Shown: positions 8,720 to 36,800 of the stretch, piece after piece
How positions within the stretch are numbered: the stretch's first letter is position 1
Layout of the letters: each line of letters opens with the position of its first letter
Origin: Anaerolineae bacterium
GTDB taxonomy: Bacteria > Chloroflexota > Anaerolineae > B4-G1 > SLSP01
Reading direction: 5' to 3'
Length of the DNA: 59,520 nt
Assembly: GCA_034433375.1 (NCBI GenBank)
Contig: DAOUAQ010000203.1
Location: 1-59,520 of the forward strand
Notes under the pieces: model-generated
What the model was told of the DNA's origin: nothing
What the model saw: the letters and a program-made list of their open reading frames with translations, nothing else
Database searches by the model: none
Position numbers and translations under genes: made by a program

Positions 8720-8738
8720 GCAAGAGGGGTGTTAGATA

Positions 8739-8788: not shown

Positions 8789-8794
8789 TATTTT

Positions 8795-9709: not shown

Positions 9710-9710
9710 G

Positions 9711-10760: not shown

Positions 10761-10763
10761 CTC

Positions 10764-17249: not shown

Positions 17250-18023
17250 ATGCTCTTAGCAGTCAATGTGGGCAACACGAATATTGTTTTCGGCATTCAC
17301 GACGGCGAAAAGTGGCTGCGGCATTGGCGCGTGCGCACGGTGCGCGATAAGATGCCCGACGAATACGGCGTGCTCTTCCGCGACTTTTTGCGAGAGACCC
17401 ACGTGGCGCTGGAAGCGCTGGAGCAGGTCGCCATCAGCAGCGTGGTCCCGCCGATTACCGACAGAATGGAGGAGATGCTCGTCGCGCAGACGGGCGTGAT
17501 GCCGTTGATTGTCAGCACAGCAGTGAAGACCGGGTTGACGTTCGCCATAGACAATCCGGCGGAACTGGGGGCGGATTTGGTCGCCGACGGGGTGGCCGCC
17601 TACGACCGCGTGCGGGATGCGTGCATCGTGGTGGACTTCGGCACGGCGACGACGTTCTCGGCGGTGGCGGCAGACGCGACGTACCTCGGCGTTGCCATCG
17701 CGCCGGGGATCAATATGGCGATGTCGGCGCTGGCGGGCGGGACGGCGCAACTGCCGCAGATCCGGTTGAGCGCGCCGCCGCGTCCCATCGGCACGAACAC
17801 CGTACATTCGATTCAATCCGGCATCGTCTTGGGTTACGTGGGGATGGTGGAGAGCCTCATCGCGCGTTTTCGGGAGCAGATGGGCGTCCCGGCGCCGGCG
17901 CTGGCGACCGGCGGCCTGGCGCGGTTGATCGCGCCGTTGACTTCATGTTTCGCAGTGGCGGACGAATGGTTGACGCTGGATGGCATTCGTCTGATCGCGC
18001 TGCTGAACAAGAATGGCGAATGA
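17250..18023 (+). CDS. coaX: Type III pantothenate kinase
   Basis: MLLAVNVGNTNIVFG (phosphate-1), VVDFGTATT, and a length of about 257 aa. ATG follows GGAGGA. The track ORF from 17079 is an upstream extension through a repeat array. Confidence 0.85.
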   Translation: MLLAVNVGNTNIVFGIHDGEKWLRHWRVRTVRDKMPDEYGVLFRDFLRETHVALEALEQVAISSVVPPITDRMEEMLVAQTGVMPLIVSTAVKTGLTFAIDNPAELGADLVADGVAAYDRVRDACIVVDFGTATTFSAVAADATYLGVAIAPGINMAMSALAGGTAQLPQIRLSAPPRPIGTNTVHSIQSGIVLGYVGMVESLIARFREQMGVPAPALATGGLARLIAPLTSCFAVADEWLTLDGIRLIALLNKNGE

Positions 18024-18119
18024 GCGAATCGGCAAATCGGCAAATCAGCAAATCGGCAAATCAGCAAATCAGCAAATCGGCGAATCGGCGAATCAGTGAA
18101 TCGGCAAATCAGTGAATAA
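18016..18119. repeat. 13 consecutive GCRAATCR octamers
   Basis: GCGAATGA GCGAATCG GCAAATCG GCAAATCA ... GTGAATAA, all direct. Unit 1 contains the coaX stop codon. Unit 13 contains the GTG used as the start of the next ORF. Confidence 0.9.
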
Positions 18120-19620
18120 CTCTCGACTCATAACCCCCAACTTACAACCCACACTCCTGAACCGAATCGTCTGGGTACTTCTGTTGGCGCTGCTGGTGCG
18201 TGTGGTATGGCTGGCGTTTTTCCCCACCAATCCCATCGCTCCGGTGGACGCGGAGGGATTTCATTTGCTCGCGGTCAACATGCGCGCCGGACGCGGGTTC
18301 GCTATCGGCTGGGAGCCACCCTTCTGCCCGACGATGGTGCGCACGCCGTTGTATCCGCTGTTTGTGGCCGGCATTTATGCGCTGGTCGGCGCCGATCCTG
18401 GGCGGGCGCTGCTCTTTCACCTGCTCCTTGAGGCGCTGACGACGGCGCTGGTTGTTCGTCTGGGGTGTGATCTCGGCGGCAAGCGCGTAGGGTGGTGCGC
18501 AGGATTGCTCTATGCGTGCAACGGCACGACGCAGCGTTACACCGGTTATCTTCTCGCTGAGGCGTTGCTCCTCCCGCTGCTGACTGCCTCCGTGTGGCTA
18601 ACACTGCGCTGCCTTCGCCGTCCGACGCGCAAAAAAGCCGCGCTGGCCGGCTTCTTCTGGGGATTGGCCTTGCTCACCAAACCCAACGTGCAGTTTCTCG
18701 CGTTGTTCATAGGCGGCCTCCTAACGTGGCGGATGGCGAATCACGAATTACGAATTACGAATGACGAATCACGTTTTACGTTTGACGTTTTACGTTCTAC
18801 ATTTGTTTTCTGGCTTACTCTCGGTCTGACACTGTTTCCCTGGCTGTCGCGCAACCGCATCGTGTTCGACAGGTGGGCGCTCTCCACGGCTTTCGAGGAG
18901 AATCTGGCGCGGGTGGCGGTGGTGGCGACATTGGCCGAAGTGGAGAATGTGCGCGTCGAGCCGTGGACCGAGACGTGGGAATACTACTACGACCGTTTCA
19001 GCGCGGATGCGGCAGCGCGCGACGACTGGGACGGGCGCGCGTTATGGGGTGATGGGTGCGTAGAACGGCAACGTCGTCAGGTTGCGATAACGCGCGCGGC
19101 GCGTGACCTTGTGCGCGCCCACCCGCTCAGCTATCTCCGCGCTCATCTACGCGGTGTCCTGACCAGCTTGCGCGACCCCGGGCACCGGCTGTGGTATCAC
19201 GTGCTGACCGGTGCGGAATGGGAAAGCACCGGCGTCGTCGCCGACATAGGGGCGCGGATGATGTGGGCGCTGGAGCGCGGCGCGGTAGGAGATGCGCTGC
19301 GCGCGCTGTGGCTTGAGCGGGTCGCGCGCCCGCCGTTGCTGGCGGCGCTGCTGTGGTGGGGATTGGGCGCCGCGCGCGTCGCGGTATGGATTGGGGGGCT
19401 GCGGGGGGCGTGGTGTTTGCGTCGCCGCCCGTGGGCGCTGTGGGTGTTCCTGGGGATGGTCGCCTATATAGTGATGTTACCTGGGCCTATCGCGTATGAT
19501 CGTTTCTATCTGCCGGCCATTCCGGCGGTCATTGTATTAGTCCTGACAGGTGTTTTGCAACCTGTCAGGACTGGTGGAACAATTGCTCGCGGATGTCCTG
19601 ATTGCTGGAACGCAGTTTGA
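18112..19620 (+). CDS. Polytopic membrane glycosyltransferase, GT39/GT83-like (ArnT/PMT_2 type)
   Basis: Multiple TM helices. The N-terminal region PTMVRTPLYPLFVAGIYALVG...LLLEALTTALVVRLG resembles the ArnT/PMT_2 family. The start (GTG inside a repeat) and the last ~16 codons (past a hairpin, overlapping the convergent gene) are uncertain. Confidence 0.6.
   Translation: MNNSRLITPNLQPTLLNRIVWVLLLALLVRVVWLAFFPTNPIAPVDAEGFHLLAVNMRAGRGFAIGWEPPFCPTMVRTPLYPLFVAGIYALVGADPGRALLFHLLLEALTTALVVRLGCDLGGKRVGWCAGLLYACNGTTQRYTGYLLAEALLLPLLTASVWLTLRCLRRPTRKKAALAGFFWGLALLTKPNVQFLALFIGGLLTWRMANHELRITNDESRFTFDVLRSTFVFWLTLGLTLFPWLSRNRIVFDRWALSTAFEENLARVAVVATLAEVENVRVEPWTETWEYYYDRFSADAAARDDWDGRALWGDGCVERQRRQVAITRAARDLVRAHPLSYLRAHLRGVLTSLRDPGHRLWYHVLTGAEWESTGVVADIGARMMWALERGAVGDALRALWLERVARPPLLAALLWWGLGAARVAVWIGGLRGAWCLRRRPWALWVFLGMVAYIVMLPGPIAYDRFYLPAIPAVIVLVLTGVLQPVRTGGTIARGCPDCWNAV
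18736..18805. repeat. Heptamer array (ACGAATN x5 then ACGTTTN x4-5) inside the glycosyltransferase CDS
   Basis: GCGAATC ACGAATT ACGAATT ACGAATG ACGAATC ACGTTTT ACGTTTG ACGTTTT ACGTTCT ACATTTG. Translated in frame as ..ANHELRITNDESRFTFDVLRSTFV.. Confidence 0.85.
19540..19571. terminator. Perfect 12-bp inverted repeat (GTCCTGACAGGT / ACCTGTCAGGAC, 8-nt loop) at the junction of two convergent genes
   Basis: Read directly. The right arm contains the stop codon of the minus-strand cNMP-binding gene. No clear U-tracts. Confidence 0.45.
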
Positions 19621-20038
19621 TTGCCAGTTCCGCTGCGATGCGGTGCATAATGTGGAAGCCGATTTCAGGATAATCGTAGCAGAGCTTCAGCAGGCGGTCG
19701 CGGGAGATGCGGAGGAGCTGTGTATCTGTTTTGCAGCGCGCCGACGCGGAGCGCGTGCCCTGATCCACCAGAAGGATTTCGCCGAAGGTGTCATTTTCCC
19801 TGCTGGTGGCGACGACCATCGGGGCCGTGCTGCTGTTTTGCGGTTCCATCAGGATGTTCACTTCGCCGCGCGCCACGATATAGAGCGCATCGCCGGGATC
19901 GTTTTGGTGGAAGATGTACTCGCTTCCACGATAGCTGATTTCTTCACAGACCATCAAGACCAAATCGAGATGAATTTCGTTGAGGTCGCGGAAGAGATCG
20001 GATTGTCTCAGGACCCGTTTGCTTTCTTGTAGATGCAT
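19565..20038 (-). CDS. Cyclic-nucleotide-binding (cNMP) domain protein
   Basis: SDLFRDLNEIHLDLVLMVCEEISYRGSEYIFHQNDPGDALYIVARGEV and FGEILLVDQGTRSASARC match the CAP/cNMP beta-barrel pattern. No output domain (157 aa). Confidence 0.75.
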   Translation of the reverse strand: MHLQESKRVLRQSDLFRDLNEIHLDLVLMVCEEISYRGSEYIFHQNDPGDALYIVARGEVNILMEPQNSSTAPMVVATSRENDTFGEILLVDQGTRSASARCKTDTQLLRISRDRLLKLCYDYPEIGFHIMHRIAAELAIKLRSSNQDIREQLFHQS

Positions 20039-20058
20039 CTTCGTCCTCCTGCGTTAGA

Positions 20059-20574
20059 TTACAACTCGATCCATTGAAGATTGCCCGTAGCCAAATCTAC
20101 GATAGCGCACGTTGCACAGCGCCACCGGCTGTGACCGAGCGCGCCGGGATTGATCACCCGCGTCTTGCCAATGGTCTCATCGGTGGGGACGTGGGTGTGC
20201 CCGTGGATGACGTAATCGTAAGTTGCGGCGCGGATCAAGGCTTCGAGCCGCGCCCAGCTATCCCCATGGATCAACGCGATCCGCGCGCCGTTGAAACTAA
20301 GTTCGTGGACGCGGGCCAGCCGCGCCGCGCCAAAACGTTCGGCAACTGCCAGCGGCAACTGGGGTTCGTGATCCATATTGCCCCTGGCGATCCACACCTC
20401 AAAGCCGTCCAGCAAGGCGAGGGTAAACGCGCTGGTGACGTCTCCCGCGTGTAGCACGGTCTGTACCTGCGCCTCGCGGAAGCGCGCTACGGCCATGCCG
20501 AGCGTCTGCTCGTTGTTGTGCGTATCGGAGATCAGACCGATCTGCATCATCGCGTTTTTCGCTGTGCCGGTCAA
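20059..20574 (-). CDS. Metallophosphoesterase, YfcE/MJ0936 family
   Basis: LISDTHNN, HAGDV, GNMD and IHGHTH motifs. The true start may be the MMQIG methionines, 8-9 codons downstream. Confidence 0.8.
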   Translation of the reverse strand: MTGTAKNAMMQIGLISDTHNNEQTLGMAVARFREAQVQTVLHAGDVTSAFTLALLDGFEVWIARGNMDHEPQLPLAVAERFGAARLARVHELSFNGARIALIHGDSWARLEALIRAATYDYVIHGHTHVPTDETIGKTRVINPGALGHSRWRCATCAIVDLATGNLQWIEL

Positions 20575-20582
20575 GCGCGCGA

Positions 20583-21224
20583 TCAGTTTTCGCGCGCGTC
20601 TACGACCTGCATATTGATGGCTTCCATCGCGGTGATAAGGTCGCCGCGCGCGACCCCGCGCACCTTCACCATCAGCGCCCCGCCGCCATCCGGCTGGTGA
20701 AACGTCCCCAGGGCGATGATGTCGCCGCCGAGCGCCGCGATGCTGCCGGCAATCCGGCTGAGCGCGCCCGGTTCATCAACGAGGTGCAGCGTCAGCCGCA
20801 CGCCGGTCTGGCGCGCGCCCATCATCTCCAGGATGGTCTTGAAAACGTCGGTTTCCGTGATGATCCCCACCAGACGGTCGCCATCTACCACAGGCAACCC
20901 GCCAATTTTGCTATCGGCCATAATGCGCGCGGCCTCTTCCAGCGGCGCATCCGGCGCAACGGTGATGACTTTCTTGGTCATAATCTCCTCGACCTTCAGC
21001 TTGGACAGCAGGTAGCCGACTTCGTAGACGCTGAGGCTGGTCGCCGGCGATGGCGAGGCGTAGAGCAGGTCTTTCTCCGAAATGATGCCGACGAGTTTGC
21101 GTTTCTTGTTGAGGATCGGCAAGCGGCGCACGTTGTGCTGGCGCATAAAACTCAACGCTTCGGCAACGGGCATTTCCGGGGTAATGGTCACAGGATTCGT
21201 GGTCATGCAATTTTTTACTAACAT
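20583..21224 (-). CDS. CBS-pair plus ACT domain protein (AcuB-like)
   Basis: Two CBS repeats (MTTNPVTITPEMPVAEALSFMRQHNVRRLPIL.. and MTKKVITVAPDAPLEEAARIMADSKIGGLPVV..). C-terminal ACT-like VRLTLHLVDEPGALSRIAG. ATG follows GAGGAGG. Confidence 0.8.
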   Translation of the reverse strand: MLVKNCMTTNPVTITPEMPVAEALSFMRQHNVRRLPILNKKRKLVGIISEKDLLYASPSPATSLSVYEVGYLLSKLKVEEIMTKKVITVAPDAPLEEAARIMADSKIGGLPVVDGDRLVGIITETDVFKTILEMMGARQTGVRLTLHLVDEPGALSRIAGSIAALGGDIIALGTFHQPDGGGALMVKVRGVARGDLITAMEAINMQVVDAREN

Positions 21225-21239
21225 GGTTTCCTCCTCAGT

Positions 21240-21668
21240 TTAGAACGCGCCTAACTGGCATTGTACGATACGCACCCCCAGTTGGTCGGCGACGTAGCCC
21301 ACCAGCATTTTAGGGATGGCGAACTGCGCGGCGATCTCCCACGCGCGTAAGCACACGAGCCGCCCTTCATCATCCAGCGCGGACTGGATGGCGGCCTCAA
21401 GCCCTGCGGGCACGGGATGCGCGGCCATGTTGGCAGCGTCCCAACCTTTGGTGTGCCCTGGATAGCCAAACAGGCCGAGTTGACAGTGATCGAGATGGAT
21501 CTTCAGCGCGTCGGCGTTATGCCCAACAGTGAGCGGCGCGACATTAGTTTTTTCGGCGATGATGAAAGCCTGCGCGCAGGCGATCTTTTCTTCATGACTG
21601 CGCGCGCGGATGTCGGCGGCAATCGTTGCATCTGGAACAAAGTCGGCGGGTAGCTTCTTCTCTCTCAC
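21240..21668 (-). CDS. Hypothetical protein with internal duplication; each half ends C-Q-L-G-x-F
   Basis: First gene of a tight operon. GTG start after GGAGGA. The halves ..ACAQAFIIAEKTNVAPLTVGHNADALKIHLDHCQLGLF and ..VCLRAWEIAAQFAIPKMLVGYVADQLGVRIVQCQLGAF align by eye. Confidence 0.5.
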   Translation of the reverse strand: MREKKLPADFVPDATIAADIRARSHEEKIACAQAFIIAEKTNVAPLTVGHNADALKIHLDHCQLGLFGYPGHTKGWDAANMAAHPVPAGLEAAIQSALDDEGRLVCLRAWEIAAQFAIPKMLVGYVADQLGVRIVQCQLGAF

Positions 21669-21889: not shown

Positions 21890-22333
21890 ATGTGGCAAGA
21901 ATTTAAGAAATTTGTGATGCGAGGTAATGTCGTTGACTTAGCCATCGCCGTCGTCATCGGCGGCGCTTTCGGCAAGATCGTGACATCTTTTGTCAACGAT
22001 ATTTTGATGCCGCCGATTGGGTTGTTGCTTGGCAAGGTGGACTTCACGAACCTGTTCATCAACCTTTCGGGGCAGGATTACGCGAGTTTAGCTGCCGCGA
22101 AGGAGGCCGGAGCCGCTACGATCAACTACGGCTTTTTCCTCAACACCATCCTGGATTTCATCATCGTGGCCTTCGTCATCTTCCTGGTTTTGCGCGCGCT
22201 GGATCGCCTTAAGAAGAAAGAAGAACCCGCCGCGCCCGCCGCGCCGACAACCAAGCCGTGTCCGTATTGCTTCACCGACATCCCCATCAAAGCGACCCGC
22301 TGCCCGCACTGCACGTCGCAACTGCAAGGATAG
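21890..22333 (+). CDS. mscL: Large-conductance mechanosensitive channel with a C-terminal CxxC..CxxC tail
   Basis: [44 protein letters not shown] is canonical MscL. The tail is [23 protein letters not shown]. Confidence 0.9.
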
Positions 22334-22400: not shown

Positions 22401-23438
22401 TTATGATGCCGTATCGCCCGTGACGACGGAGAACTGCATCGTGCGCAGCAGCTTCACGAACGCGGCTTGCGCTCCGGCTTCCTCAAAAATGACATACAGC
22501 GTGTCTGTTTTGCCCTTTGCATTAGGATATTGAAAGCGCGTGGCCCATTTATTCTTCCAGCCATAGATCTTTCCTGCTGTAACGTCGGTGCTGTGATCGT
22601 GGCGCAAGAAAACGCCCCAATCCGTTATCGTCGTGTTGACCGTTATCCCGTAAGTCTTGGTCTTCAGAATGTGGTGGATGTAGATCATGAGCTGCTGTTC
22701 GCCCACTGGGACGACGTTGGCGACCGCGTTGCTGAACTTTCGGGTGGTTTTTCCAACTTCGAGTGGGTCAACGCTCTTGAGCTGCGTAAATTTCCCGGTC
22801 GCCTTCACCCCGTATCGTTCGGTCGGCGGGGGAACCGTCGTGTCGAGTGGATAAGGCGCAAATACTGTGCCGGGGAAGAAGAAGGGGATGCAGCACAGGC
22901 CAACGCCGACAAGCCCGACTAACAACAGCACAATGCTGTTCCCTTTTGTAGGCGGCATTGTGCCGTCTTCGATGTACAGCGCCGTCGTCGTTCTGACATC
23001 GTTTTGGGTGAACAGCGTTTCATCCTCTTTTATGGCGTCCTTCAGGTCGGTGGGGGGCGTGCGCGTCATCCCAGTGACGGTAGCGGCGCCGTTTTGCCTG
23101 GCGACGACGAGCGCCGAAGTGTGTTTCACCAAGACCATATCACCGGTTCTGGCGTCAATGAGAAAGTAGTAAGTTTCGGTTGTTTTCCCATCCTTGCTTT
23201 TTTCGTACCCCAGGTCGTAGACTGCCATGCCGGCGACGCTGACATACCGGCTTGTGGCGACGTCGCCATTGACGAGCTGCGACACTGTCACCGTTTGCGG
23301 CGTGTCTGAATTGTTCAACGCCGTGCTGAGGCTGCCCAATCCCGCGCAAGCGACAACTGCCGCCAGGACAAGAACCAATCCACATCCCACTTTGAGACTG
23401 CCAATCCGGCCTTTCCATCGCAACACACGCTCGTTCAT
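22401..23438 (-). CDS. Hypothetical membrane protein (N-terminal TM and one internal TM)
   Basis: ATG follows AGGAGG. TM segments VGCGLVLVLAAVVACAGL and SIVLLLVGLVGVGLCCIPFFF. No family recognised. Confidence 0.5.
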   Translation of the reverse strand: MNERVLRWKGRIGSLKVGCGLVLVLAAVVACAGLGSLSTALNNSDTPQTVTVSQLVNGDVATSRYVSVAGMAVYDLGYEKSKDGKTTETYYFLIDARTGDMVLVKHTSALVVARQNGAATVTGMTRTPPTDLKDAIKEDETLFTQNDVRTTTALYIEDGTMPPTKGNSIVLLLVGLVGVGLCCIPFFFPGTVFAPYPLDTTVPPPTERYGVKATGKFTQLKSVDPLEVGKTTRKFSNAVANVVPVGEQQLMIYIHHILKTKTYGITVNTTITDWGVFLRHDHSTDVTAGKIYGWKNKWATRFQYPNAKGKTDTLYVIFEEAGAQAAFVKLLRTMQFSVVTGDTAS

Positions 23439-23573
23439 CGCGCGCCTCCTGGTTGATTGGGTTTGATTATAGTGAATTCTCTGTGTTTGACAAAAGCTGT
23501 ATTGACAGGTCTGCCAAACTGTGATACCTTTACGCTAACACGCGCTGAGATTGCACGTGGATAATTTACAAAA

Positions 23574-23705
23574 TCAACGCCGAGTGTTGAGGGCTGCGGC
23601 GCTCAACAACGGGGGAACCAGGTTGGGGGCGAATCGGCAGCGACCGTGCTGCTGTAGGGTCAGCTTCTTCGATCCGAGTCCGGCAGCTAACCTCGTAGGC
23701 GTTCT
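23574..23705 (+). promoter_or_regulatory. ydaO/yuaA-class (c-di-AMP) riboswitch aptamer
   Basis: P1 candidate AACGCC (23576..23581) pairs with GGCGTT (23698..23703). Conserved blocks recalled for the class: ACGGGGGAACCA (23609..23620), GGGGGCGAATC (23625..23635) and CCGAGTCCGGCAGCTAACCTCGTAGGCG (23674..23701). Local hairpin GTTGAG..CTCAAC. Confidence 0.7.
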
Positions 23706-23706
23706 A

Positions 23707-23747
23707 GGAGAAGGCTACCTTGTGCGACAAGGCGCCTTCTTTTGTTT
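23707..23747 (+). terminator. Intrinsic terminator (expression platform) directly after the aptamer
   Basis: AGAAGGC-TA-CCTTG-TGCGA-CAAGG-C-GCCTTCT followed by TTTGTTT. Confidence 0.7.
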
Positions 23748-23749
23748 AT

Positions 23750-23896
23750 AGCTATCAGCTATCAGCTTTCAGCCGTCAGTTATCAGCGAGCAGCTATCAG
23801 CTATCAGCTTTCAGCCGTCAGTTATCAGCGAGCAGCTATCAGCGATTGGCCTTCAAATGCAAGGGCTGACCGCTGAAAGCTGACCGCTGAAAGCTA
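23750..23896. repeat. 14 AGCNNTC heptamers (two and a third copies of a 42-nt super-unit) plus an inverted 2 x 14-nt copy abutting the RBS
   Basis: AGCTATC AGCTATC AGCTTTC AGCCGTC AGTTATC AGCGAGC, repeated (23750..23847). Then (TGACCGCTGAAAGC)x2 at 23867..23894, whose reverse complement matches CAGCTTTCAGCCGTCAG at 16 of 17 positions. Confidence 0.9.
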
Positions 23897-23906
23897 TAAA
23901 GGAGTG

Positions 23907-25862
23907 ATGATGCAGAAAATACTGGTGACGCCGGGTTCTTTCGTGGTTGGCGCGAATTATTGGGCCTCGCACGCCGGCACGGCGATGTGGCGCGAGTGGC
24001 GGGCCGATGTGGTGGAACACGATTTCAAGACGCTGTCCGAAGCGGGTTTACAAGTGTTGCGCGTTTTCCCGCTTTGGCCGGATTTTCAGCCGCTCACGCA
24101 GTTGTATGGCGGGCATGGCGACCCCGTTGAAATCCGCCACGGCGAAGCGGCGCTGCCCGCCACCGAAGCCGGACGCGCCGGCGTCTCTACCGCGATGCTG
24201 CTGCGCTTTGCGGAATTCACGCGGTTGGCGGCTCAGTACGACCTCAAACTCATCGTCGGGTTGCTCACCGGCTGGATGAGCGGGCGTTTGTTCGTCCCGT
24301 CGGCGTTGGAAGGACGCAACGTGCTCACCGACCCCGTGGCGTTGCTGTGGGAGACCCGCTTCGCGCAGTATTTCGTGCGGCAGTTCAAAGACGATCCCGC
24401 CATCGCCGCGTGGGACCTGGGCAACGAGTGCAACTGCATGGCGCGCGTCCCCGGCCACGAGGCGGCATGGGCGTGGACGGCGGCGATTGTCAACGCGATC
24501 CGCGCGGTAGACCCCGACCGGCCCATCGTCTCCGGGATGCACAGCCTCACGCCCACCGGCGAGTGGCGAATGCAGGATCAGGGCGAGCTGACCGACGTGC
24601 TGACGACACACCCGTATCCGGTTTTCACGCCGCACTGCAACCAGGACCCCGTCAACACGCTCTGCACGCAACTGCACGCTACGGCGGAATCGCTGTTCTA
24701 CGCGGACCTGGGCGGCAAGCCGTGTTTTGCGGAAGAACTTGGCACGCTGGGGCCGATGGTCGCCAGCGAAACCGTCGCCGCCGACTTCATCCGCGCCGGG
24801 CTGTTCTCGCTGTGGGCGCACGATTTGCGCGGGCTGCTGTGGTGGTGCGCCAGCGATCAGACAGAGCTGACCGATGCGCCCTACGATTGGTACGCGATGG
24901 AGCGCGAGTTAGGCTTGCTGCGCACGGATGGAACGTCAAAGCCGGTGCTCAAAGAGTTCGGGAAATTCCGCGCCTTTTTGGACAACTTGCCGCAGCCGTT
25001 GCCGCCGCGCGTCACAGAAGCCGTCTGCATCCTCAGCGCCGACCAGGATCAATGGGGCGTGGCTTACAGCGCCTTCGTCCTGGCGAAACAGGCCGGCTTC
25101 GACCTGGAATTCCAGTACGAGGCGCAGCCGCTCAAGGAGGCGGACCTCTATCTGCTGCCCTGTATCAGCTGGCATCGCGTGATCCACCGCCGCCGGTATA
25201 TGGAATTGATGGCGCGCGTAGCAGAGGGCGCGACGCTCTACATCTCCTACGCTGGCGGCTTTTTGAGCCATTTCGAGGAACTGACCGGCCTGCGCGTGCT
25301 CACGCGCGCGAAGCGGACGGGCGTTTGTAGTGCGCGCTTCAGCGCGTTGGACGCTGCGCCGCAGTTCTCGATGACCGGCGAGTACCGTCTCGCGCTTGAT
25401 CCCGTGCGCGCCGAGGTGTTGGGCGTCGAGGCAGACGGCAATCCGGCGTTCACCGTCGCGCCTTACGGCAAGGGGCGCGTCTATTTCCTGGGTTTCCCGC
25501 TGGAAATGGCGCTCACGACCACGCCCGGCGCGTTCCACACGCCGGAGGCGCAGCCGTTCTGGGTGCTTTACCGCCACATCGCGCAGCCCTTTGCGCAGGC
25601 GCGCGCCATCGTCAAACATCACCCTATGCTCGGTGTGACCGAGCATCCGCTCGATGCGCGCCGCCGCGTCGTGGTCGTCATCAACTACAGCCCTGAGCCG
25701 GTGAAAACAACGCTGGACCTGGCTTCTGGTTGGACGGTGGGGGCGGTCTGGTACGGCGCAAGCGGGCTGGAGCACGCTCCAGCCCAAGCGGAAAACATAA
25801 CACTCGCGCTGCCGCGAAATGACGCCTGTGTGATTGTTGTCGAAAATCGGATGGAATTGTAG
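23907..25862 (+). CDS. Cytoplasmic clan GH-A glycoside hydrolase with GH42-like three-domain layout (family not certain)
   Basis: N-terminal TIM-barrel pattern GANYWASHAG..DFKTLSEAGLQVLRVFPLWPDFQP. Candidate acid/base WDLGNECN and nucleophile CFAEELG. The middle domain resembles the GH42 trimerisation domain (ICILSADQDQWG..ADLYLLPCI). No signal peptide. RBS AAAGGAG. Confidence 0.7.
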   Translation: MMQKILVTPGSFVVGANYWASHAGTAMWREWRADVVEHDFKTLSEAGLQVLRVFPLWPDFQPLTQLYGGHGDPVEIRHGEAALPATEAGRAGVSTAMLLRFAEFTRLAAQYDLKLIVGLLTGWMSGRLFVPSALEGRNVLTDPVALLWETRFAQYFVRQFKDDPAIAAWDLGNECNCMARVPGHEAAWAWTAAIVNAIRAVDPDRPIVSGMHSLTPTGEWRMQDQGELTDVLTTHPYPVFTPHCNQDPVNTLCTQLHATAESLFYADLGGKPCFAEELGTLGPMVASETVAADFIRAGLFSLWAHDLRGLLWWCASDQTELTDAPYDWYAMERELGLLRTDGTSKPVLKEFGKFRAFLDNLPQPLPPRVTEAVCILSADQDQWGVAYSAFVLAKQAGFDLEFQYEAQPLKEADLYLLPCISWHRVIHRRRYMELMARVAEGATLYISYAGGFLSHFEELTGLRVLTRAKRTGVCSARFSALDAAPQFSMTGEYRLALDPVRAEVLGVEADGNPAFTVAPYGKGRVYFLGFPLEMALTTTPGAFHTPEAQPFWVLYRHIAQPFAQARAIVKHHPMLGVTEHPLDARRRVVVVINYSPEPVKTTLDLASGWTVGAVWYGASGLEHAPAQAENITLALPRNDACVIVVENRMEL

Positions 25863-25957
25863 CGCAAGCTGTGTCCGCAAGTTTGCGGCGCTTGCGTGCA
25901 GAAAAAGCAAACTAACAGTTTGCCCTACACTGGTATGTATGATTTTGGAGGAATAGA

Positions 25958-27208
25958 GTGAACGAAAAAACTGATTACAAAGTTCGCGCCGTACACTGCG
26001 ATCACAAAGCCGCCGATGACGCCGTCTACGAGGCGCTGCGACGGGTCACGCAACCGTTGGCACGTTCCTGGGACAAACTCCGGGCGGCAAAGCGTATCGC
26101 GATCAAGTTCAACCAGGATTGGGTGCTCCATCACGTGGTCTATTTTGAGGGACAACGCCGCCAGTTGGTGAGCGACAGTGTGGCGCGCGCCGTGTTGCGC
26201 CTGCTGCGCGAGGAAACCTCCGCCGAATTGGTGTGCGTGGACGCGAGTTACTACGTGATCTATCAGGAGAACGCCAAAACCGTCGCCGACACGACGACGC
26301 TGGCAGCAATCCTGCGCGAGTTCGACGTGCCGTACATTGACGGAAGCAAGCCGCCGTACAAAGTCGTCGGCGTGCCGGGCGGCGGGCAGATGTTCGAGCA
26401 GTACGCGATGATGCAGGATGTGGTCGAGGCCGATGCGGTGGTCTCGGTGGCGAAGATGAAGAACCACGCCTATATGGGCGTCACCGCCTGTCTCAAAAAC
26501 CTCTTCGGGCTGATGCCTGTCGCTATGCCGGGCCGCTCGCGCCACTACTACCACCATCTCGTGCGGATGCCCTACATGCTGGCGGACATCGGGCGGGTCC
26601 TCAACCCGGCGCTCAATATCGTGGATGCGCTGGTGGGGCAAGCCAGCTCGGAGTGGGGGCGCGAACCGGACATCGGGCGCATCGTCAACGCGCTCATCGC
26701 CGGCGACCACGTTATCGCCACCGACGCCTGTGTGACGCACCTGATGGGCCACAATCCGCAGAGCGACTGGCTGACCGAGCCGTTCCACCGCGACCGCAAC
26801 GCGCTGCTGGCGGCGGAGGAGGGCGGCTTCGGCACGGTCAACCTGGATGAGATTGACTTTACATCCGAGGTTGCGCCGCAGCCGGAAGGCACGTTCTTCG
26901 CCAAAAAGGGCGACGATCTCAAAACCGTCGTCACCTGGCGGCGGACGATGTGCGAGCAGGCGCTCTACTACCGCGATCACATGCGCGACTTCACCGATAA
27001 GTACGCCGGTGAGTTCATCCTGCTTCAGGATGGCGAGGTGCGCTGGCACGATACCAATGGGATGCTGCGCGTGAGCCGCCGCCAGCTCTCCGGCGCGCAC
27101 TCCGACCACGCGATGTTCTTCAAGTACGTGGATCCCGAAGAGCGCGAGCGGGAGCACTACGAGGTCTATGAGAGGGCGTTACAGCACGTTCAAAGTCTAA
27201 AGTCCTGA
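25958..27208 (+). CDS. DUF362 domain protein with extra C-terminal domain (paralog 1)
   Basis: IAIKFNQ.. and VSVAKMKNHAYMGVTACLKNLFGLMP are DUF362 hallmarks as I recall them. GTG start after GGAGGA. The last codons are supplied by a heptamer array. Confidence 0.75.
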   Translation: MNEKTDYKVRAVHCDHKAADDAVYEALRRVTQPLARSWDKLRAAKRIAIKFNQDWVLHHVVYFEGQRRQLVSDSVARAVLRLLREETSAELVCVDASYYVIYQENAKTVADTTTLAAILREFDVPYIDGSKPPYKVVGVPGGGQMFEQYAMMQDVVEADAVVSVAKMKNHAYMGVTACLKNLFGLMPVAMPGRSRHYYHHLVRMPYMLADIGRVLNPALNIVDALVGQASSEWGREPDIGRIVNALIAGDHVIATDACVTHLMGHNPQSDWLTEPFHRDRNALLAAEEGGFGTVNLDEIDFTSEVAPQPEGTFFAKKGDDLKTVVTWRRTMCEQALYYRDHMRDFTDKYAGEFILLQDGEVRWHDTNGMLRVSRRQLSGAHSDHAMFFKYVDPEEREREHYEVYERALQHVQSLKS

Positions 27209-27309
27209 GTCCAAAGTCCTGAGTCCAAAGTCCAAAGTTCAAAGTCCAAAGTCGTTTGCAGTTTGACTTTCGACTTTCGACTTTCGACTTTCGACTAACG
27301 ACTACAGCA
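27191..27309. repeat. 17 heptamers: CAAAGTC-type x9, then complementary-type TTTCGAC units (imperfect long hairpin)
   Basis: Read directly. The array begins within the last 6 codons of paralog 1 and ends 3 nt before the AAGGAG RBS of paralog 2. Confidence 0.9.
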
Positions 27310-27328
27310 GCAAGGAGATTGGTTAACG

Positions 27329-28582
27329 ATGAATACACAACGTGAAAAATACTGTGTCCGCGCGCTGCATTGCGACTATCGCGCCGCGGATGAAGTCGTT
27401 TACGAGACGCTCAAACGCGCCACTGCGCCGTTGACGCGGGCGTGGGAGAAACTCAAGGCCGCGAAACGCATCGGTATCAAGTTCAACCAGGACTACGCGC
27501 CGGCCCGCACGCCGTACTTTGAAGGTCAGCGCCTTCAGCTCGTCAGCGATCAAGTGGCGCGGGCGGTGGTGCGCTTGCTCCAGGAGGAGACCGCCGCCGA
27601 GTTGTTCTTTGTGGATACCACCGTCTTCCACTTCGATGGCAGCCCCGATCCCGTGGACTCCACGCACCTGGCCCCGATCATGCGCGAGTTCGGCGTCTCC
27701 TACGTGAACGCGGACATTCCGCCTTTCGGCGTATACCAGGTCCCCGGCGGCGGGCAGATGTTCCGCCAGTACGTGCTGCCGCAAGCCGTGCTGGAAGCCG
27801 ATGCCCTGGTGGACGTGCAGCGGATGAAGAACCACGCCTTTATGGGCATTACGCTCACGCTCAAGAATCTCTTTGGCTTGATGCCGATGCGCGAGCCGCT
27901 GGGCCGTTCCCGTCAGTACTTCCACCATCTGGTGCGGATGCCTTACATGCTTGCCGACATCGGGCGGCTGTTCAATCCCACGCTGAACATTATTGACGCC
28001 CTTATCGCGCAGACGGGCGGCGAATGGAGCGCGACGGACCAGGAAGCGCCGGTGGTCGTCAACGCGCTGGTCGCCGGCGATCACCCCATCGCTACCGACG
28101 TTGTGGGGACGCACTTGATGGGCCTCGATCCCACGGCGGACTGGCTGACCGCGCCGTACCACCGCGACCGCAACCCGCTGCTCGTGGCGGCGGAGGGCGG
28201 CTTCGGGACGGTCAACCTGGACGACATTGACTGGACTTCCGAGGTTGCGCCGCAGCCGGCCGGTGTGTTCTTCGCCGCGATGACCGACGATGTGGCGCGC
28301 GTCATCTCCTGGCGACGCACCACCTGCGAGCAGGCGCTCTACTACCGCGACCACCGGCAGGACTTCATTGACAAGTACGCCGGGCAATACATTCTGCTGC
28401 AAGAGAACGAGGTCAAGTGGAATAGCGAGAGCAGCTTCTTCCGTGGCAGCCGCCGTCATCTCTCCGGCGACCGGCCCGACCAGGCGATGTGGGTCAAGTA
28501 TGTGGATCCCGACGAAGCCGAGGGCGAGCATTTCGAGGTCTACGAACGGGCGCTGGCGGATATTCAAGCGCGAGGGTTGTAG
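27329..28582 (+). CDS. DUF362 domain protein with extra C-terminal domain (paralog 2)
   Basis: Collinear with paralog 1 along the full length. VDVQRMKNHAFMGITLTLKNLFGLMP. Shared C-terminal WRRTTCEQALYYRDH..DKYAGQYILLQENEVKW. Confidence 0.75.
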   Translation: MNTQREKYCVRALHCDYRAADEVVYETLKRATAPLTRAWEKLKAAKRIGIKFNQDYAPARTPYFEGQRLQLVSDQVARAVVRLLQEETAAELFFVDTTVFHFDGSPDPVDSTHLAPIMREFGVSYVNADIPPFGVYQVPGGGQMFRQYVLPQAVLEADALVDVQRMKNHAFMGITLTLKNLFGLMPMREPLGRSRQYFHHLVRMPYMLADIGRLFNPTLNIIDALIAQTGGEWSATDQEAPVVVNALVAGDHPIATDVVGTHLMGLDPTADWLTAPYHRDRNPLLVAAEGGFGTVNLDDIDWTSEVAPQPAGVFFAAMTDDVARVISWRRTTCEQALYYRDHRQDFIDKYAGQYILLQENEVKWNSESSFFRGSRRHLSGDRPDQAMWVKYVDPDEAEGEHFEVYERALADIQARGL

Positions 28583-28748
28583 CTGTTTGCGCGTGTGGCA
28601 AGTTAGCCTATTTGAACTTACGCCGTCGCCGCATGAATGGGTGGTTGAGGCGCTTGAACGCAGTCCGGTCAAAGAGGCTCCATTATCACACGCTATCGCC
28701 ATAAAAAGCAGACTCATTGATGACTCTACTGCAAAAAGTCCTTCTTGA

Positions 28749-28880
28749 CCGCTAAGACGCCAAGTTCGCCAAGAGAACAAAAGAATACATAAGTAATTTT
28801 AATAAATTTGCGCATTTTTACAAATTTTATTCATTTGCTCATTAAAAACCTTGGCGTCCTTGGCGACTTGGCGGTTTTTT
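28749..28880. repeat. Inverted CGCCAAG-type repeat arms flanking a ~75-bp AT-rich core, followed by T6
   Basis: Left arm CCGCTAAGACGCCAAGTTCGCCAAG (28749..28773). Right arm CCTTGGCGTCCTTGGCGACTTGGCGG (28849..28874). T6 at 28875..28880. Confidence 0.75.
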
Positions 28881-28895
28881 CAGGGGAGTCATAAA

Positions 28896-28950
28896 ACGTG
28901 AAACGCAAAATGTGAGATGTAAGGCTCCGCTTACGTTTTACGCTTCACGT
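28896..28950. repeat. Imperfect 21-bp inverted repeat built from ACGTGAA/ACGTTTT-type heptamers
   Basis: ACGTGAAACGCAAAATGTGAG against CTTACGTTTTACGCTTCACGT. 17 Watson-Crick pairs plus 2 G-U in RNA. Confidence 0.7.
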
Positions 28951-29073
28951 CCTGCAGATTCAAATGATTCTCTAAGCTTTTGTTAATGCCTTGCTAATCA
29001 TTCTATGGGATACTGGACTCAGGAACCTCGTATAGCCTGGATAGTATAAGGCTTGTGGTGCTCGGAGGGGAAA

Positions 29074-31776: not shown

Positions 31777-31923
31777 GCTGGAAACTGGAAGCTGGATACT
31801 GGAAGCTGGATACTGGAAACTGGAAGCTGGAAGCTGGATACTGGAGAGTACTACTCGCAACTCTTAACTCTTAACTCTTAACTCTTAACTCTTTACTCTT
31901 TACCAATCACCAATCACTTGAGG
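31777..31923. repeat. 21 heptamers in three blocks: CTGGAAR-type x10, CTCTTAA-type x6, CCAATCA x2 (direct)
   Basis: Read directly. Fills almost the whole rnc-clpC spacer. Confidence 0.9.
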
Positions 31924-35602: not shown

Positions 35603-36715
35603 TTGCCATCTCTTACCTCAATTGCTGAAGAATTTGATTTTGGTGGTGGCGTGCTCGACGTGCAACGCTACGGTTCGGGCAACGTGAACGATACTTTTCT
35701 GGTCACACTGGACTCCGGTTCTTATGGAAAGGCCATTCTCCAACGGGTCAATCAGCGAGTGTTTCGCCGCCCGGAGTTGATCATCCTCAACATGCGCGCT
35801 TTTATGGATCACATACGTGCCCACGCGGGAGGGTTTCCCCACCCGCCGGGGCGCAGATGGGAAACGCTCGACATTATTTCTACCAAAAACGGCATAGATT
35901 ATTTTGTGGATATCGAGAAAGGTTTTTGGCGTGCGACAACCTTTGTCGAGGGGGCGCAAACGTATGATACGATTCAAAACCGTCGTCATGCCGGTGAAAT
36001 CGGGTATGCGCTGGGCAGATTTCACAGTCTGATCAGCGATCTTCCCGTAGAAAAGCTGCACGATACCCTCGAAGGATTTCATATCACACCGCGCTATTTG
36101 GCGCATCACGATGAAGTGATTGCCAAAGACGGCTACAAATCGTCGCCTGACGTGCGCTATGGGCTGAATTTTGTTGCTCAACGCCGGGAATGGGCTTCTG
36201 TTTTAGAGGATGCGCTCGCGCGCCACGAATTAGTCATGCATCCGATCCACGGTGATCCCAAAGTCAACAACATTATGATTGACGATGCTACCGGGCAGGC
36301 CGTCAGCGTCGTTGATCTGGACACGGTCAAGCCCGGGCTGGTGCATTACGACATCGGCGATTGCCTGCGTTCGTGTTGCAACCCTCTGGGCGAAGAAACC
36401 TGCGCTCTCGACGAGGTGCGGTTTGAAACCGACTTGTGTCAGGCGATTTTGGTAGGCTATCTGGCCGAGGCGCGGCATTTTCTGACCGCCAAAGATTACG
36501 CCTACATCTATGACGCGGTGCGGTTGATCGCGTTCGAGCTAGGCTTACGGTTTTTCACCGACTACCTGGAAGGCAATGTGTACTTCAAAACGAGGGATGC
36601 GGAGCACAACCTGTGCCGCGCGCTGGTGCAATTCCGTTTGACGGAAAGCATCGAGGCGCAAGCCGGCGCGATCCAGGCGATTGTGGCTTCGCAGCGCACA
36701 GCAGTTAGCGATTAG
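35603..36715 (+). CDS. APH-fold anomeric sugar kinase, N-acetylhexosamine 1-kinase (NahK)-like
   Basis: By-eye collinearity with Bifidobacterium NahK as I recall it: YGSGNVNDTFLV, ILQRVNQRVF, HGDPKVNNIMIDDATG..VVDLDT, RFFTDYLEGNVYFKTRDAEHNL. I place the start at TTG 35603, 6 nt after GGAGGG and downstream of the terminator. The track start is 35546. Confidence 0.72.
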   Translation: MPSLTSIAEEFDFGGGVLDVQRYGSGNVNDTFLVTLDSGSYGKAILQRVNQRVFRRPELIILNMRAFMDHIRAHAGGFPHPPGRRWETLDIISTKNGIDYFVDIEKGFWRATTFVEGAQTYDTIQNRRHAGEIGYALGRFHSLISDLPVEKLHDTLEGFHITPRYLAHHDEVIAKDGYKSSPDVRYGLNFVAQRREWASVLEDALARHELVMHPIHGDPKVNNIMIDDATGQAVSVVDLDTVKPGLVHYDIGDCLRSCCNPLGEETCALDEVRFETDLCQAILVGYLAEARHFLTAKDYAYIYDAVRLIAFELGLRFFTDYLEGNVYFKTRDAEHNLCRALVQFRLTESIEAQAGAIQAIVASQRTAVSD

Positions 36716-36800
36716 CGGTCAGCTATCAGCGACGAAATTCATATCTGGTGAGCTGACCTGCTGTTGATGCTGATGGCTGACGGCTGATAACTGACAGCGA
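36703..36800. repeat. AGC/CAGC-type heptamer arms in inverted orientation (same family as 23750..23896)
   Basis: Left arm AGTTAGC GATTAGC GGTCAGC TATCAGC (includes the kinase stop codon). Right arm GCTGACC..ATGGCTG ACGGCTG ATAACTG ACAGCGA, ending at the GAGGAGG RBS. Confidence 0.85.

Follow-up and report, generated by a model that had tools for sequence, protein, structure and literature searches.

What does a c-di-AMP riboswitch control when the genes behind it encode a glycosidase and two proteins of DUF362, a family that an earlier note on this DNA had described as being of no established function, and for which we found no function assigned in the literature? The locus lies in a stretch of 59,520 nucleotides from an Anaerolineae bacterium, the whole of which we refer to as the window. 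The earlier note had treated riboswitch, glycosidase and DUF362 pair as one module, and we have looked at each component in the window and in related genomes. Everything described in that note was found where it had been placed, and the features are listed in Table 1.

The riboswitch and the genes behind it

Table 1. Features of the riboswitch/DUF362 locus, in window coordinates
Feature	Position	Strand	Basis or comment
MscL mechanosensitive channel gene	21890-22333	+	MscL-like translation; context, outside operon
c-di-AMP riboswitch aptamer, ydaO/kimA class, RF00379	23568-23717	+	Rfam model match
Expression platform (intrinsic terminator)	23707-23749	+	Fold, terminator scan, conservation
Leader heptamer-repeat array	23750-23895	+	Tandem Repeats Finder, fold
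ORF 1, glycosidase (GH), 652 aa	23904-25862	+	
GH to DUF362-A spacer, 95 nt	25863-25957	+	Sequence, terminator scan
ORF 2, DUF362-A, 416 aa	25958-27208	+	
C-terminal domain of DUF362-A, aa ~318-416	26909-27205	+	Stand-alone AF2 model
A-B spacer heptamer arrays	27191-27303	+	Tandem Repeats Finder, terminator scan
ORF 3, DUF362-B, 417 aa	27329-28582	+	
C-terminal domain of DUF362-B, aa ~319-417	28283-28579	+	Aligns with the domain of A

The presence of a riboswitch upstream of the three genes is confirmed, as the RF00379 model aligns over its whole length (positions 1-134 of 134) and scores 77.3 bits (gathering score 38; E = 3e-16), and a terminator-type expression platform follows. This is a G+C-rich hairpin in which GAAGGC...GCCUUC encloses an inner stem, with UUUUGUUUAU after it. 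The platform overlaps the aptamer at its 3' end and was recognised in the fold of 23700-23905 and by a terminator scan match at 23718-23732, and hairpin and T-tract are kept in five relatives. c-di-AMP riboswitches are described as transcriptional OFF switches (PMC9960051), and the intrinsic terminator that directly follows this aptamer implies the same here, the OFF logic at 23568-23749 being carried over from the established behaviour of the class. With c-di-AMP bound, the aptamer would let the hairpin and U-tract end transcription, and at low c-di-AMP there would be read-through into the three genes, all of which have cytoplasmic products.

The leader that follows holds AGCTATC-type heptamers (a 42-nt unit present 2.2 times by Tandem Repeats Finder) and complementary GCTGAAA-type repeats, which fold together into a long hairpin (z = -5.4 against shuffles) just 5' of an AAGGAG ribosome-binding site. 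Many of the intergenic regions in the window contain heptamer arrays that could form long hairpins.

The three genes are co-directional and in an operon-like arrangement, as had been reported. Their products show neither hydrophobic N-termini nor TM-like segments (maximum Kyte-Doolittle 19-residue mean <=1.27 across all three), in keeping with the earlier statement that signal peptides are lacking. The first spacer contains a GCGCAAGC...GCTTGCG hairpin, an A-rich stretch and then a GGAGG ribosome-binding site, with no U-tract and no terminator-like site by inspection and terminator scan. The second (27209-27328, 120 nt) takes in most of an array of nine CAAAGTC heptamers and 4.6 copies of GACTTTC, the latter nearly the reverse complement of the former; these could form an imperfect hairpin, again with no U-tract, and the scan found no terminator-like site in this spacer. 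The claim that only hairpins and repeats, and no U-tract terminator, separate the genes thus holds. A scan for promoter-like sites found none in either spacer, and the region as a whole has 8 terminator-like sites against a shuffle expectation of 6.6 +/- 2.5.

Conservation of the switch and the DUF362 pair

Between them, Rfam and a covariance model of our own detect the riboswitch ahead of DUF362 genes at 30 related loci: Rfam finds it 5' of DUF362 pairs in 7 loci, in three different gene contexts, and our model finds it upstream on the same strand in 28 of 81. Of the A/B-pair loci, 22 include sufficient DNA upstream, and every one of these has the riboswitch; three further pair loci are cut by contig ends. 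In a neighbour-joining tree the A-type and B-type proteins form separate clades and A is always the first gene, so by sequence A and B appear to be ancient paralogs that have retained the order A then B. No riboswitch accompanies the single DUF362-long genes of Caldilineaceae, Roseiflexaceae, Oscillochloris and Anaerolinea, whose surroundings are heterogeneous.

The glycosidase is distributed differently. A homolog is present in only five of the fetched loci (L005, L006, L012, L016 and L020), which become three once same-sequence duplicates are collapsed, while in L009-L011, L013-L015 and L017-L019 the riboswitch is followed directly by A and then B with no glycosidase gene. These relatives are equally close, with DUF362-A 88-91% identical, and the proposed conserved triad of GH, DUF362 and DUF362 has to be given up: riboswitch and pair are conserved and the glycosidase falls outside this conserved unit. 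Comparison of the loci indicates that the A/B pair was the original cargo of the switch, and the glycosidase would be a lineage-specific addition between switch and pair.

The same data bear on whether the adjacency is incidental, with the riboswitch controlling the glycosidase alone, the spacer structures ending or processing the transcript, and A and B being expressed separately. The structures in the 95-nt and 120-nt spacers, and the frequency of long-hairpin arrays between genes of the window, would suit this, but where the glycosidase is missing the same riboswitch and terminator directly precede A and B, the switch accompanies all of the pair loci that can be assessed, and the spacers have neither U-tracts after their hairpins nor promoter-like sites. 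We consider incidental adjacency very improbable.

In more distant relatives the switch leads a longer operon, seen in 16-20 loci. In these more distant Chloroflexota it runs riboswitch-MFS-A-B-DHDPS-like-acid-sugar dehydratase-MBL-kinase-second GH5-type gene. The enzymes are a DHDPS-family protein (KdgD/aldolase-like), a galactonate/mannonate-dehydratase-like member of the enolase superfamily, an MBL-fold protein and a fructosamine-kinase-like kinase; the MR_MLE protein matches acid-sugar dehydratase at 1.9e-52 as against 1.2e-6 for L-Ala-D/L-Glu epimerase. The GH5-type protein that closes these operons differs from the glycosidase of the window, from which it follows that a glycosidase has been recruited twice. 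In the closest relative (L012) a DHDPS gene comes right after B. These gene contents point to glycoside and sugar-acid metabolism, although the DHDPS, dehydratase, MBL, kinase and MFS genes are absent from the window itself, so the case for sugar acids is borrowed from the relatives.

The DUF362 pair and its relationship to LarA

Alignment of A and B over 414 residues gives 61% identity, close to the 60% estimated by eye, and 75% similarity. The motifs quoted earlier are present, except that K-M-K-N-H is true of A and B has R-M-K-N-H. PF04015 gives 100.6 bits on A and 99.9 bits on B, in each case confined to residues ~71-261, so the C-terminal ~100 aa are beyond the Pfam model. A has a core of aa ~1-305 followed by the C-terminal domain, and B has the same architecture and conserved residues.

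The C-terminal domain, with motifs WRRTxCEQALYY ... YILLQDGEVxW ... VDPEE.E.EH.EVYE in A, had been described as an extension outside the DUF362 core, and it does look to be a separate, uncharacterised domain: aa 305-416 of A modelled alone gave a pLDDT of 91, the domains of A and B have no Pfam match (E <= 10 for A), the PDB fold search gave no match (best E = 2.7) and a BFVD search gave only weak DUF5678-like matches. The pair thus shares with generic DUF362 proteins, which include the NCBIfam NF052623 'Npun_F2552 family' and Fe-S or CBM9-linked proteins, a core matching PF04015 at about 100 bits, but is of a long form (~415 aa) with a family-specific C-terminal domain. NF052623 scores are 59 and 43 bits against a cut-off of 500 bits, and in contrast to the Fe-S proteins there is no Fe-S domain and one conserved Cys (C14) family-wide.

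The earlier note had suggested predicting and searching the structures of core and extension separately; this gave nothing for the extension but was informative for the core. The AF2 model of DUF362-A (pLDDT 93, pTM 0.93) has LarA and its homologs as the top 18 matches in a Foldseek search of the PDB (probability 0.89-1.0, E 3e-5 to 2e-2), and as its only significant structural neighbours, with low TM-scores of 0.30-0.38. DUF362 and DUF2088 (LarA) share Pfam clan CL0471, and D-gluconate and D-mannonate 2-epimerases are among the LarA homologs (PMC11770544). The core is thus predicted to fold like the nickel-pincer enzyme LarA, of the lactate racemase superfamily. Alignment with hhalign (E = 2.4e-4; LarA sequence checked against 5HUQ) sets H170 opposite H174 and K180 opposite K184. 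Neither residue varies within the family, even at 21% identity, and the H-x9-K spacing is that of LarA's catalytic His174 and cofactor (NPN)-tethering Lys184, whose roles His170 and Lys180 would then fill. Every candidate active-site residue is retained in the A clade and the B clade alike (112 sequences).

There are also clear differences from LarA. In the alignments its second catalytic His108 has no conserved counterpart in the pair, and no equivalent of Arg75 could be mapped; for the Ni-ligand His200 simple spacing suggests H199, which the extended hhalign alignment sets opposite LarA His217. The Pfam scan of the pair gave no match to PF09861/DUF2088, and an unrelated domain of ~100 aa replaces the C-terminal domain of LarA. 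The genes come as conserved A/B paralog pairs, with no larB, larC or larE seen near any locus examined, and there are no LarB-, LarC- or LarE-type families among the window ORFs covered by the Pfam scan, which left out some, especially in the first 2 kb and at 40.7-41.4 kb. On the side of likeness, operons of the relatives hold an acid-sugar dehydratase and an aldolase-family gene, as would be expected beside a sugar-acid epimerase.

We give about an even chance to the reading that this is a c-di-AMP-repressed operon built around the ancient A/B pair, whose LarA-fold members would act on a hydroxy or sugar acid. The putative reaction would be a LarA-type hydride-transfer oxidation and re-reduction, for example C2 epimerisation, with a 2-hydroxy acid or a sugar acid as substrate, and A and B may act together as a hetero-oligomer or in consecutive steps. 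It is possible, but on balance unlikely, that the LarA likeness is only ancestral and that the pair is a metal-dependent LarA-fold enzyme without pincer chemistry, a hydrolase, isomerase or lyase using conserved His, Lys and Asp directly. Only two of five LarA signature residues map with any support, and the lack of a DUF2088 match, the low TM-scores and the failure to see lar cofactor genes near any locus go the same way, as do other invariant polar residues (K50, N52, D159, K168, H199, H200, D210 and D256) that could form a metal site. Against it are the exact H-x9-K spacing, invariant family-wide, and the finding of no other significant structural neighbours.

The glycosidase and the role of the operon

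The first gene had been labelled GH42-like. Its best PDB sequence match is Op5Man5 (7BOB, E = 1e-19, over aa 14-65 and 98-355), and the GH5_18 beta-mannosidases 7lr1 and 6gvb are matched as well; Pfam gives weak matches to PF00150 and PF08532, and the GH42 link is only a sub-threshold match to the GH42 trimerisation domain. GH42 catalytic identity was dropped on these grounds, and the product is assigned from sequence as a cytoplasmic GH5-family glycosidase of the Op5Man5 type. Op5Man5 is a GH5 exo-beta-1,4-mannosidase with GH42-type homotrimeric architecture. The window protein resembles the Op5Man5/GH5_18 enzymes in its size (~600-650 aa), cytoplasmic location, weak trimerisation domain match and retention of the NE acid/base and nucleophile Glu, which align with a GH5 exo-beta-mannosidase (candidates N174-E175 and E278, by motif position). 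Sequence similarity is low, however, and homologs in other genomes have no riboswitch and neighbour GH2 beta-mannosidase, GH36, GH32 and phosphomannose isomerase genes. Translation probably starts at ATG 23907 or 23910 rather than GTG 23904, since the AAGGAG ribosome-binding site overlaps the GTG.

In the preferred reading the glycosidase might cleave an intracellular beta-glycoside, perhaps a beta-mannoside, and so supply the pair with a sugar or aglycone. An MscL gene adjoins the riboswitch/DUF362 locus in 8 related genomes, and PF01741 is matched by the MscL homologs of relatives. Induction at low c-di-AMP and the MscL adjacency suggest a tie to osmotic or cell-envelope homeostasis, although the osmotic logic of catabolic induction at low c-di-AMP is not obvious. 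The direction proposed earlier, glycoside or osmolyte turnover, is a reasonable one because a glycosidase has been recruited on two occasions and genes for MscL or MscS are nearby, but what the evidence favours, more specifically, is sugar-acid chemistry by LarA-fold enzymes. A stronger version, a dedicated and conserved GH-DUF362-DUF362 module for intracellular glycoside osmolyte or glycan turnover with the glycosidase as integral first step, we think improbable. It could draw on the shared riboswitch and terminator-free spacers, the same arrangement in five loci, the double recruitment and the MscL gene, but the glycosidase is missing in close relatives, its homologs elsewhere are in ordinary sugar-utilisation loci without the switch, its catalytic domain is GH5 and not GH42, and no osmolyte-synthesis or osmolyte-specific gene was identified.

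Recycling of cell-wall sugars typically involves MFS permeases, APH-type kinases and cytoplasmic exo-glycosidases, a set that the operons would fit. The window has an amino-sugar recycling cluster (NamZ, ROK, SIS, PIG-L) at 6.3-11.6 kb. Nearly every gene preceded by a c-di-AMP riboswitch in Actinobacteria has to do with the cell wall (PMC9960051). All three could be taken to mean that the operon serves envelope glycan remodelling or recycling and not osmolyte or sugar-acid catabolism. We regard this as quite unlikely, as the MR_MLE protein is far better as an acid-sugar dehydratase than as an L-Ala-D/L-Glu epimerase, the glycosidase is closest to beta-mannosidases and not to muramidases or GlcNAc-ases, and the operon proteins have no signal peptide or cell-wall-binding domain.

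With regard to known RF00379 operons, such as those of B. subtilis kimA, B. thuringiensis kdpFABC and actinobacterial rpfA and nlpC, the locus has the same aptamer class, matched at full length, and an intrinsic terminator right after it. It differs in its cargo, a LarA-fold DUF362 pair and a GH5 protein, with a sugar-acid pathway in relatives, which is neither a K+ or osmoprotectant transporter nor a wall hydrolase. In a literature search that did not take in the gene lists from Nelson et al. (2013), we found no report linking c-di-AMP riboswitches to DUF362, and the conserved association of switch and pair is a first testable lead on the role of this uncharacterised enzyme family.

The proposed operon and its riboswitch

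The c-di-AMP (ydaO/kimA) riboswitch aptamer is the sole Rfam family returned by a scan of the whole window, and the match is complete (model positions 1-134 of 134). The run UUUUGUUUAU after a G+C-rich hairpin completes an intrinsic terminator that overlaps the 3' tail of the aptamer and forms the expression platform, and both hairpin and run are kept in relatives. Riboswitches of the RF00379 class terminate transcription when c-di-AMP is bound (PMC9960051), and the window copy should thus be an OFF switch, with low c-di-AMP predicted to allow read-through past the terminator and so to turn the operon genes on.

Three co-directional genes follow, encoding a glycosidase (GH) and two DUF362 proteins (DUF362-A and DUF362-B, here A and B). 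The GH-A and A-B spacers contain a hairpin and heptamer arrays, and a site scan found in them neither a hairpin with a U-tract nor a promoter-like site. None of the three proteins has a signal peptide or TM-like segment, and A and B are 61% identical over their full length. An earlier note, made from sequence alone, had described a riboswitch and three co-directional genes with no U-tract terminator between them, proteins without signal peptides, and DUF362 paralogs roughly 60 percent identical; riboswitch, ORFs, spacers, localisation and paralog identity are all as described, and that observation is therefore confirmed.

Features of the window discussed in the text
Feature	Position	Strand	Details
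Amino-sugar or peptidoglycan recycling-type cluster	2129-11618	-	oligopeptide ABC transporter genes, NamZ, ROK protein and others
Exo-beta-N-acetylmuramidase NamZ	6331-7488	-	in the 2129-11618 cluster
Heptamer/octamer tandem arrays	18015-18117, 18733-18804, 23750-23895, 27191-27303, 31777-31917, 36707-36795, 47057-47092		7- or 8-nt units, intergenic
cNMP-binding protein, metallophosphoesterase, CBS-CBS-ACT protein, 142-aa protein	19565-21668	-	beside mscL
345-aa conserved protein	22401-23438	-	N-terminal hydrophobic segment, no Pfam match, divergent from riboswitch promoter region
c-di-AMP riboswitch aptamer, RF00379	23568-23717	+	77.3 bits (gathering score 38), E = 3e-16
Intrinsic terminator	about 23707-23749	+	G+C-rich hairpin and UUUUGUUU, directly 3' of aptamer
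Heptamer-repeat block after terminator			146 nt, long-hairpin fold (z = -5.4), 3' end at AAGGAG ribosome-binding site
GH	23904-25862	+	652 aa
DUF362-A	25958-27208	+	416 aa
DUF362-B	27329-28582	+	417 aa
AT-rich, apparently non-coding stretch	28583-29052		470 nt, between DUF362-B and ftsH
Very large gene, 1338-aa protein	42939-46955	+	partial adenylate/guanylate-cyclase domain, AAA ATPase domain, TPR repeats
Very large gene, 3563-aa protein	47116-57807	+	FG-GAP, PKD and Big_5 repeats

Conservation in related loci

More than 2000 full-length DUF362 homologs, about 415 aa long, were found, almost all of them from Chloroflexota, and 91 related loci were fetched (labelled L001 and so on). In an NJ tree the A-type and B-type proteins form old paralog clades, and A comes first in every case. 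By Rfam, DUF362 pairs in three differing contexts have this riboswitch upstream of them, and a covariance model made from those matches and run on 81 loci found it upstream and on the same strand in 28. It precedes every A/B-type pair with enough upstream sequence (22/22, leaving out 3 A/B pair loci cut by contig ends). The pairs in L052, L059, L075 and L088 are independent duplications and have no riboswitch. Single-copy long DUF362 genes (Caldilineaceae, Litorilinea, Roseiflexaceae, Oscillochloris, Anaerolinea) are in mixed neighbourhoods, and a riboswitch before them was considered and rejected, with no match to Rfam or the built model in Litorilinea, Caldilineaceae, Oscillochloris, Anaerolinea and others.

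The loci of the window's clade, which we call type I, have the order MscL, riboswitch, optional GH, A, B. GH was found in only five of the fetched loci (L005, L006, L012, L016 and L020; three after collapsing same-sequence duplicates) and is missing in equally close relatives: in L009-L011, L013-L015 and L017-L019, with DUF362-A 88-91% identical, the riboswitch and terminator are directly before A. The earlier note had suggested a module of glycosidase and two DUF362 proteins for the turnover of an intracellular glycan or glycoside osmolyte. The riboswitch part of that neighbourhood holds in relatives, but the glycosidase part does not, and a fixed osmolyte module of this kind, weakened by the patchy presence of GH, is unlikely. 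The GH-less relatives also contradict an incidental adjacency of separately transcribed genes, which is highly improbable. The conserved unit is the riboswitch plus the DUF362 A/B pair, and in this we have high confidence.

Type II loci come from more distant Anaerolineae and other Chloroflexota MAGs, and their operon, which has tight gene junctions, includes sugar-acid genes. After the riboswitch come one or two MFS transporters, then A, B, a DHDPS-family gene, an acid-sugar dehydratase, an MBL-fold protein, a fructosamine-kinase/APH-type kinase and a second GH5-type protein. The dehydratase is of the enolase superfamily and galactonate/mannonate-dehydratase-like (E = 1.9e-52). The GH5-type protein differs from the window GH and is related to PDB 9GMJ (DUF5060), for which a literature search gave no usable result. 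The window has no homologs of the DHDPS, MR_MLE, MBL, kinase or MFS genes of the extended operon.

In type II loci one or two URO-D-family genes precede the riboswitch closely and in the same direction (L004, L008, L023, L025, L027, L029-L032, L034, L035, L039, L043, L044, L055 and L057), often with an aldo-keto reductase and in some cases an amidase; these genes may be part of the same pathway without being under c-di-AMP control.

A DHDPS-family gene also follows B in the type I loci L012 and L014. In L012, the closest relative, it occupies the place of the AT-rich stretch of the window, and nucleotide similarity between the two ends exactly at the stop codon of B, which suggests a deletion or rearrangement there in the window's lineage. 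In L021 (8479-10239), another close relative, mscL is only about 90 nt upstream of a DUF362-A that is 86% identical, and both riboswitch and B are absent, which suggests their secondary loss. In L001 (Litorilinea aerophila, 6980-9251), L086 and L090 a single long DUF362 gene comes directly after an MscS-type channel gene; this arrangement, in Litorilinea and some Caldilineaceae, lacks the riboswitch, and is a second, independent association of the long DUF362 family with a mechanosensitive channel.

The DUF362 proteins and lactate racemase

A and B match PF04015 with 100.6 and 99.9 bits (threshold 24), over aa ~71-261 only, and they are not members of the "Npun_F2552 family" NF052623 (58.9 and 43 bits against a cut-off of 500). 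We found no paper assigning a function to DUF362 and no functional study of it, including any link to the c-di-AMP riboswitch or Chloroflexi.

The AF2 model of DUF362-A (pLDDT 93, pTM 0.93) has lactate racemase (LarA) and its homologs as its only significant structural neighbours in PDB by Foldseek, where they fill ranks 1-18 (probability 0.89-1.0, E 3e-5 to 2e-2). The TM-scores, at 0.30-0.38, are low, which would fit an enzyme of two domains whose C-terminal half differs. DUF362 and the DUF2088 of LarA share one Pfam clan (PMC11770544). At the sequence level DUF2088, the N-terminal domain of LarA, has no Pfam match in A or B at E <= 0.1, and a PDB sequence search with DUF362-A alone or a 53-sequence profile gave nothing usable.

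Alignment of a DUF362 profile to LarA (sequence identical to 5HUQ) by hhalign gave a best E of 2.4e-4 in three runs, in all of which H170 and K180 pair with LarA His174, a catalytic base, and Lys184, the tether for the nickel-pincer nucleotide (NPN) that is the LarA cofactor. The segment EADAVVSVAKMKNH170AYMGVTACLK180 of DUF362 aligns with EADLLISEGFIESH174FFAGFSGGRK184 of LarA. All family members down to 21% identity have H170 and K180, and likewise K50, N52, D159, K168, N181, H199, D210 and D256. We considered that one paralog might be catalytically dead and rejected this, as neither the A nor the B clade has lost any of these residues. From the Foldseek neighbours and the H170/K180 match it is therefore evident that DUF362-A has a LarA-type fold and two of its key residues.

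The pair thus shares with LarA the fold, the Pfam clan and an H-x9-K motif, but differs in having no DUF2088 match, no conserved counterpart of the second catalytic His108 and a different C-terminal half. In the hhalign alignment the column opposite His108, near I100, is variable and not His; PDB does contain LarA-like enzymes that have only one catalytic His, 9q3j for example. H199 and H200 are invariant and 19 or 20 residues past K180, against 16 for the Ni-ligand His200 in LarA, and by spacing either could be its equivalent; in an extended hhalign they sit opposite LarA His217, but the relaxed local alignment past K180 is unreliable and we therefore do not equate H199 with His200. No counterpart of the phosphate-binding Arg75 could be mapped in the alignment, and a global hhalign run (-glob) was unsuccessful. 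Cofactor use by the pair is hypothetical, and no larB, larC or larE gene was seen among the scanned window ORFs or in the annotated neighbourhoods of the loci. A LarA-fold enzyme that works without NPN fits most of the data and is possible, though somewhat doubtful. The structural and motif link to LarA does predict residues, H170 and K180, and a cofactor that can be tested.

The earlier note had set apart a C-terminal extension of about 100 aa as foreign to the DUF362 core, and this stands, as PF04015 stops at ~261 and the extension matches nothing in Pfam, even at E <= 10, and no PDB fold (best E = 2.7), so that the structure check on the extension alone found no well-characterised domain. 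It comprises aa ~318-416 of DUF362-A, folds confidently alone (AF2, fragment aa 305-416, pLDDT 91), and has two helices, a beta-hairpin (YILLQDGEVxW), a short helix, a strand and a last helix. There is a weak Foldseek match to viral DUF5678 in BFVD (probability 0.97-0.99, E = 0.15-0.16, TM 0.36-0.52). The domain is present in full-length members down to about 27% identity. Searches with it alone gave only short fragments, and the two of these that were inspected on long contigs proved to be parts of split DUF362 genes and not stand-alone domains. To judge by the high pTM of the full model, the domain would pack against the core, and it may replace LarA's own C-terminal lid.

The glycosidase, the proposed pathway and neighbouring genes

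The glycosidase had been labelled "GH42-like", but no Pfam match to the GH42 catalytic-domain family was found at E <= 0.1, and its other Pfam matches are all sub-threshold: GH5 (PF00150, 21.8 bits, just under the 23.5 cut-off), the GH42 trimerisation domain (PF08532, 19.5 against 25.8) and the GH2 TIM barrel. In PDB sequences, phmmer ranks 7BOB first (E = 1e-19) and GH5_18 beta-mannosidases next (1e-13 to 1e-8). 7BOB is Op5Man5, an exo-beta-1,4-mannosidase of GH5 that was described as the first member of its family to have a GH42-type homotrimeric architecture (PMC8233224), which accounts for the label. The clan GH-A catalytic pair is present as N174-E175 (acid/base) and E278 (nucleophile), with G-N174-E175-C aligned to DLGNE of 7bob and E278, in AEELG, to QE. 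By its sequence the window enzyme is probably a member of GH5, Op5Man5-like or GH5_18-like, and not of GH42, and exo-beta-mannosidase is a predicted candidate activity. Chloroflexota and Armatimonadota have many close homologs, and one from Lentisphaeria is among the matches listed. General riboswitch control of these homologs was rejected, as in three inspected loci their neighbours are ordinary genes of sugar utilisation (GH2 beta-mannosidase, GH36, GH32, phosphomannose isomerase) and there is no riboswitch.

Our best explanation, a c-di-AMP-controlled operon with LarA-fold A and B as its core, has in our view about an even chance of being right; we have high confidence in the regulatory architecture and in A and B as core, and low confidence in the chemistry. 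A and B together would carry out a LarA-like hydride transfer on a 2-hydroxy acid or sugar acid, for example C2 epimerisation, for which LarA homologs including gluconate/mannonate 2-epimerases are a precedent (PMC11770544). The GH5 enzyme would free their substrate from a glycoside, as would the second GH5-type enzyme in type II. Adjacency to MscL or MscS, together with control by c-di-AMP, suggests a link with osmotic or envelope homeostasis; that the operon serves envelope-glycan recycling we think very unlikely.

More specifically, A and B could be an unrecognised LarA-like hydride-transfer branch under direct c-di-AMP control in Chloroflexota, with NPN or a new cofactor on Lys180, catalysing the committed step of an undescribed sugar-acid pathway for imported or glycoside-derived sugar acid in osmotic or envelope stress. 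All of this together is quite unlikely, but if true it would give DUF362 its first function and add carbon-skeleton chemistry to the transport and wall hydrolysis of the c-di-AMP regulon.

Riboswitch, GH5 and DUF362 are each already known families. The tight coupling of the riboswitch to an ancient long-form DUF362 pair, the C-terminal domain and the sugar-acid link appear to be undescribed in the literature searched, original riboswitch gene lists aside. DUF362 is an old Pfam family, and a specific signal, c-di-AMP, is now tied tightly and repeatedly to one of its subfamilies. The operon of the relatives, with acid-sugar dehydratase, aldolase-family enzyme, transporter and glycosidases, narrows the search for a substrate to sugar acids and glycosides. 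The c-di-AMP riboswitch of Chloroflexota controls metabolic enzymes too, beyond the transporters and wall hydrolases of Firmicutes and Actinobacteria.

With regard to the surroundings, the 345-aa protein has the same place in L005, L012, L019 and L020, and is missing in other close relatives. At least seven related genomes have the first three genes of the block beside mscL in unchanged order, and the fourth is patchier; the 142-aa protein has no Pfam match. CBS-domain proteins are c-di-AMP receptors in other bacteria. The recycling-type cluster also includes a ROK protein with a MarR-type N-terminus, a nucleotidyltransferase, a double-SIS protein and a PIG-L deacetylase. Inside the gene of the 3563-aa protein, an 18-nt (6-aa) unit is repeated in tandem at 55247-55452. 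The short arrays, which occupy many of the intergenic regions, are often paired, with adjacent, nearly complementary units that could form long hairpins, and are similar to the STRR heptamers known from filamentous cyanobacteria.
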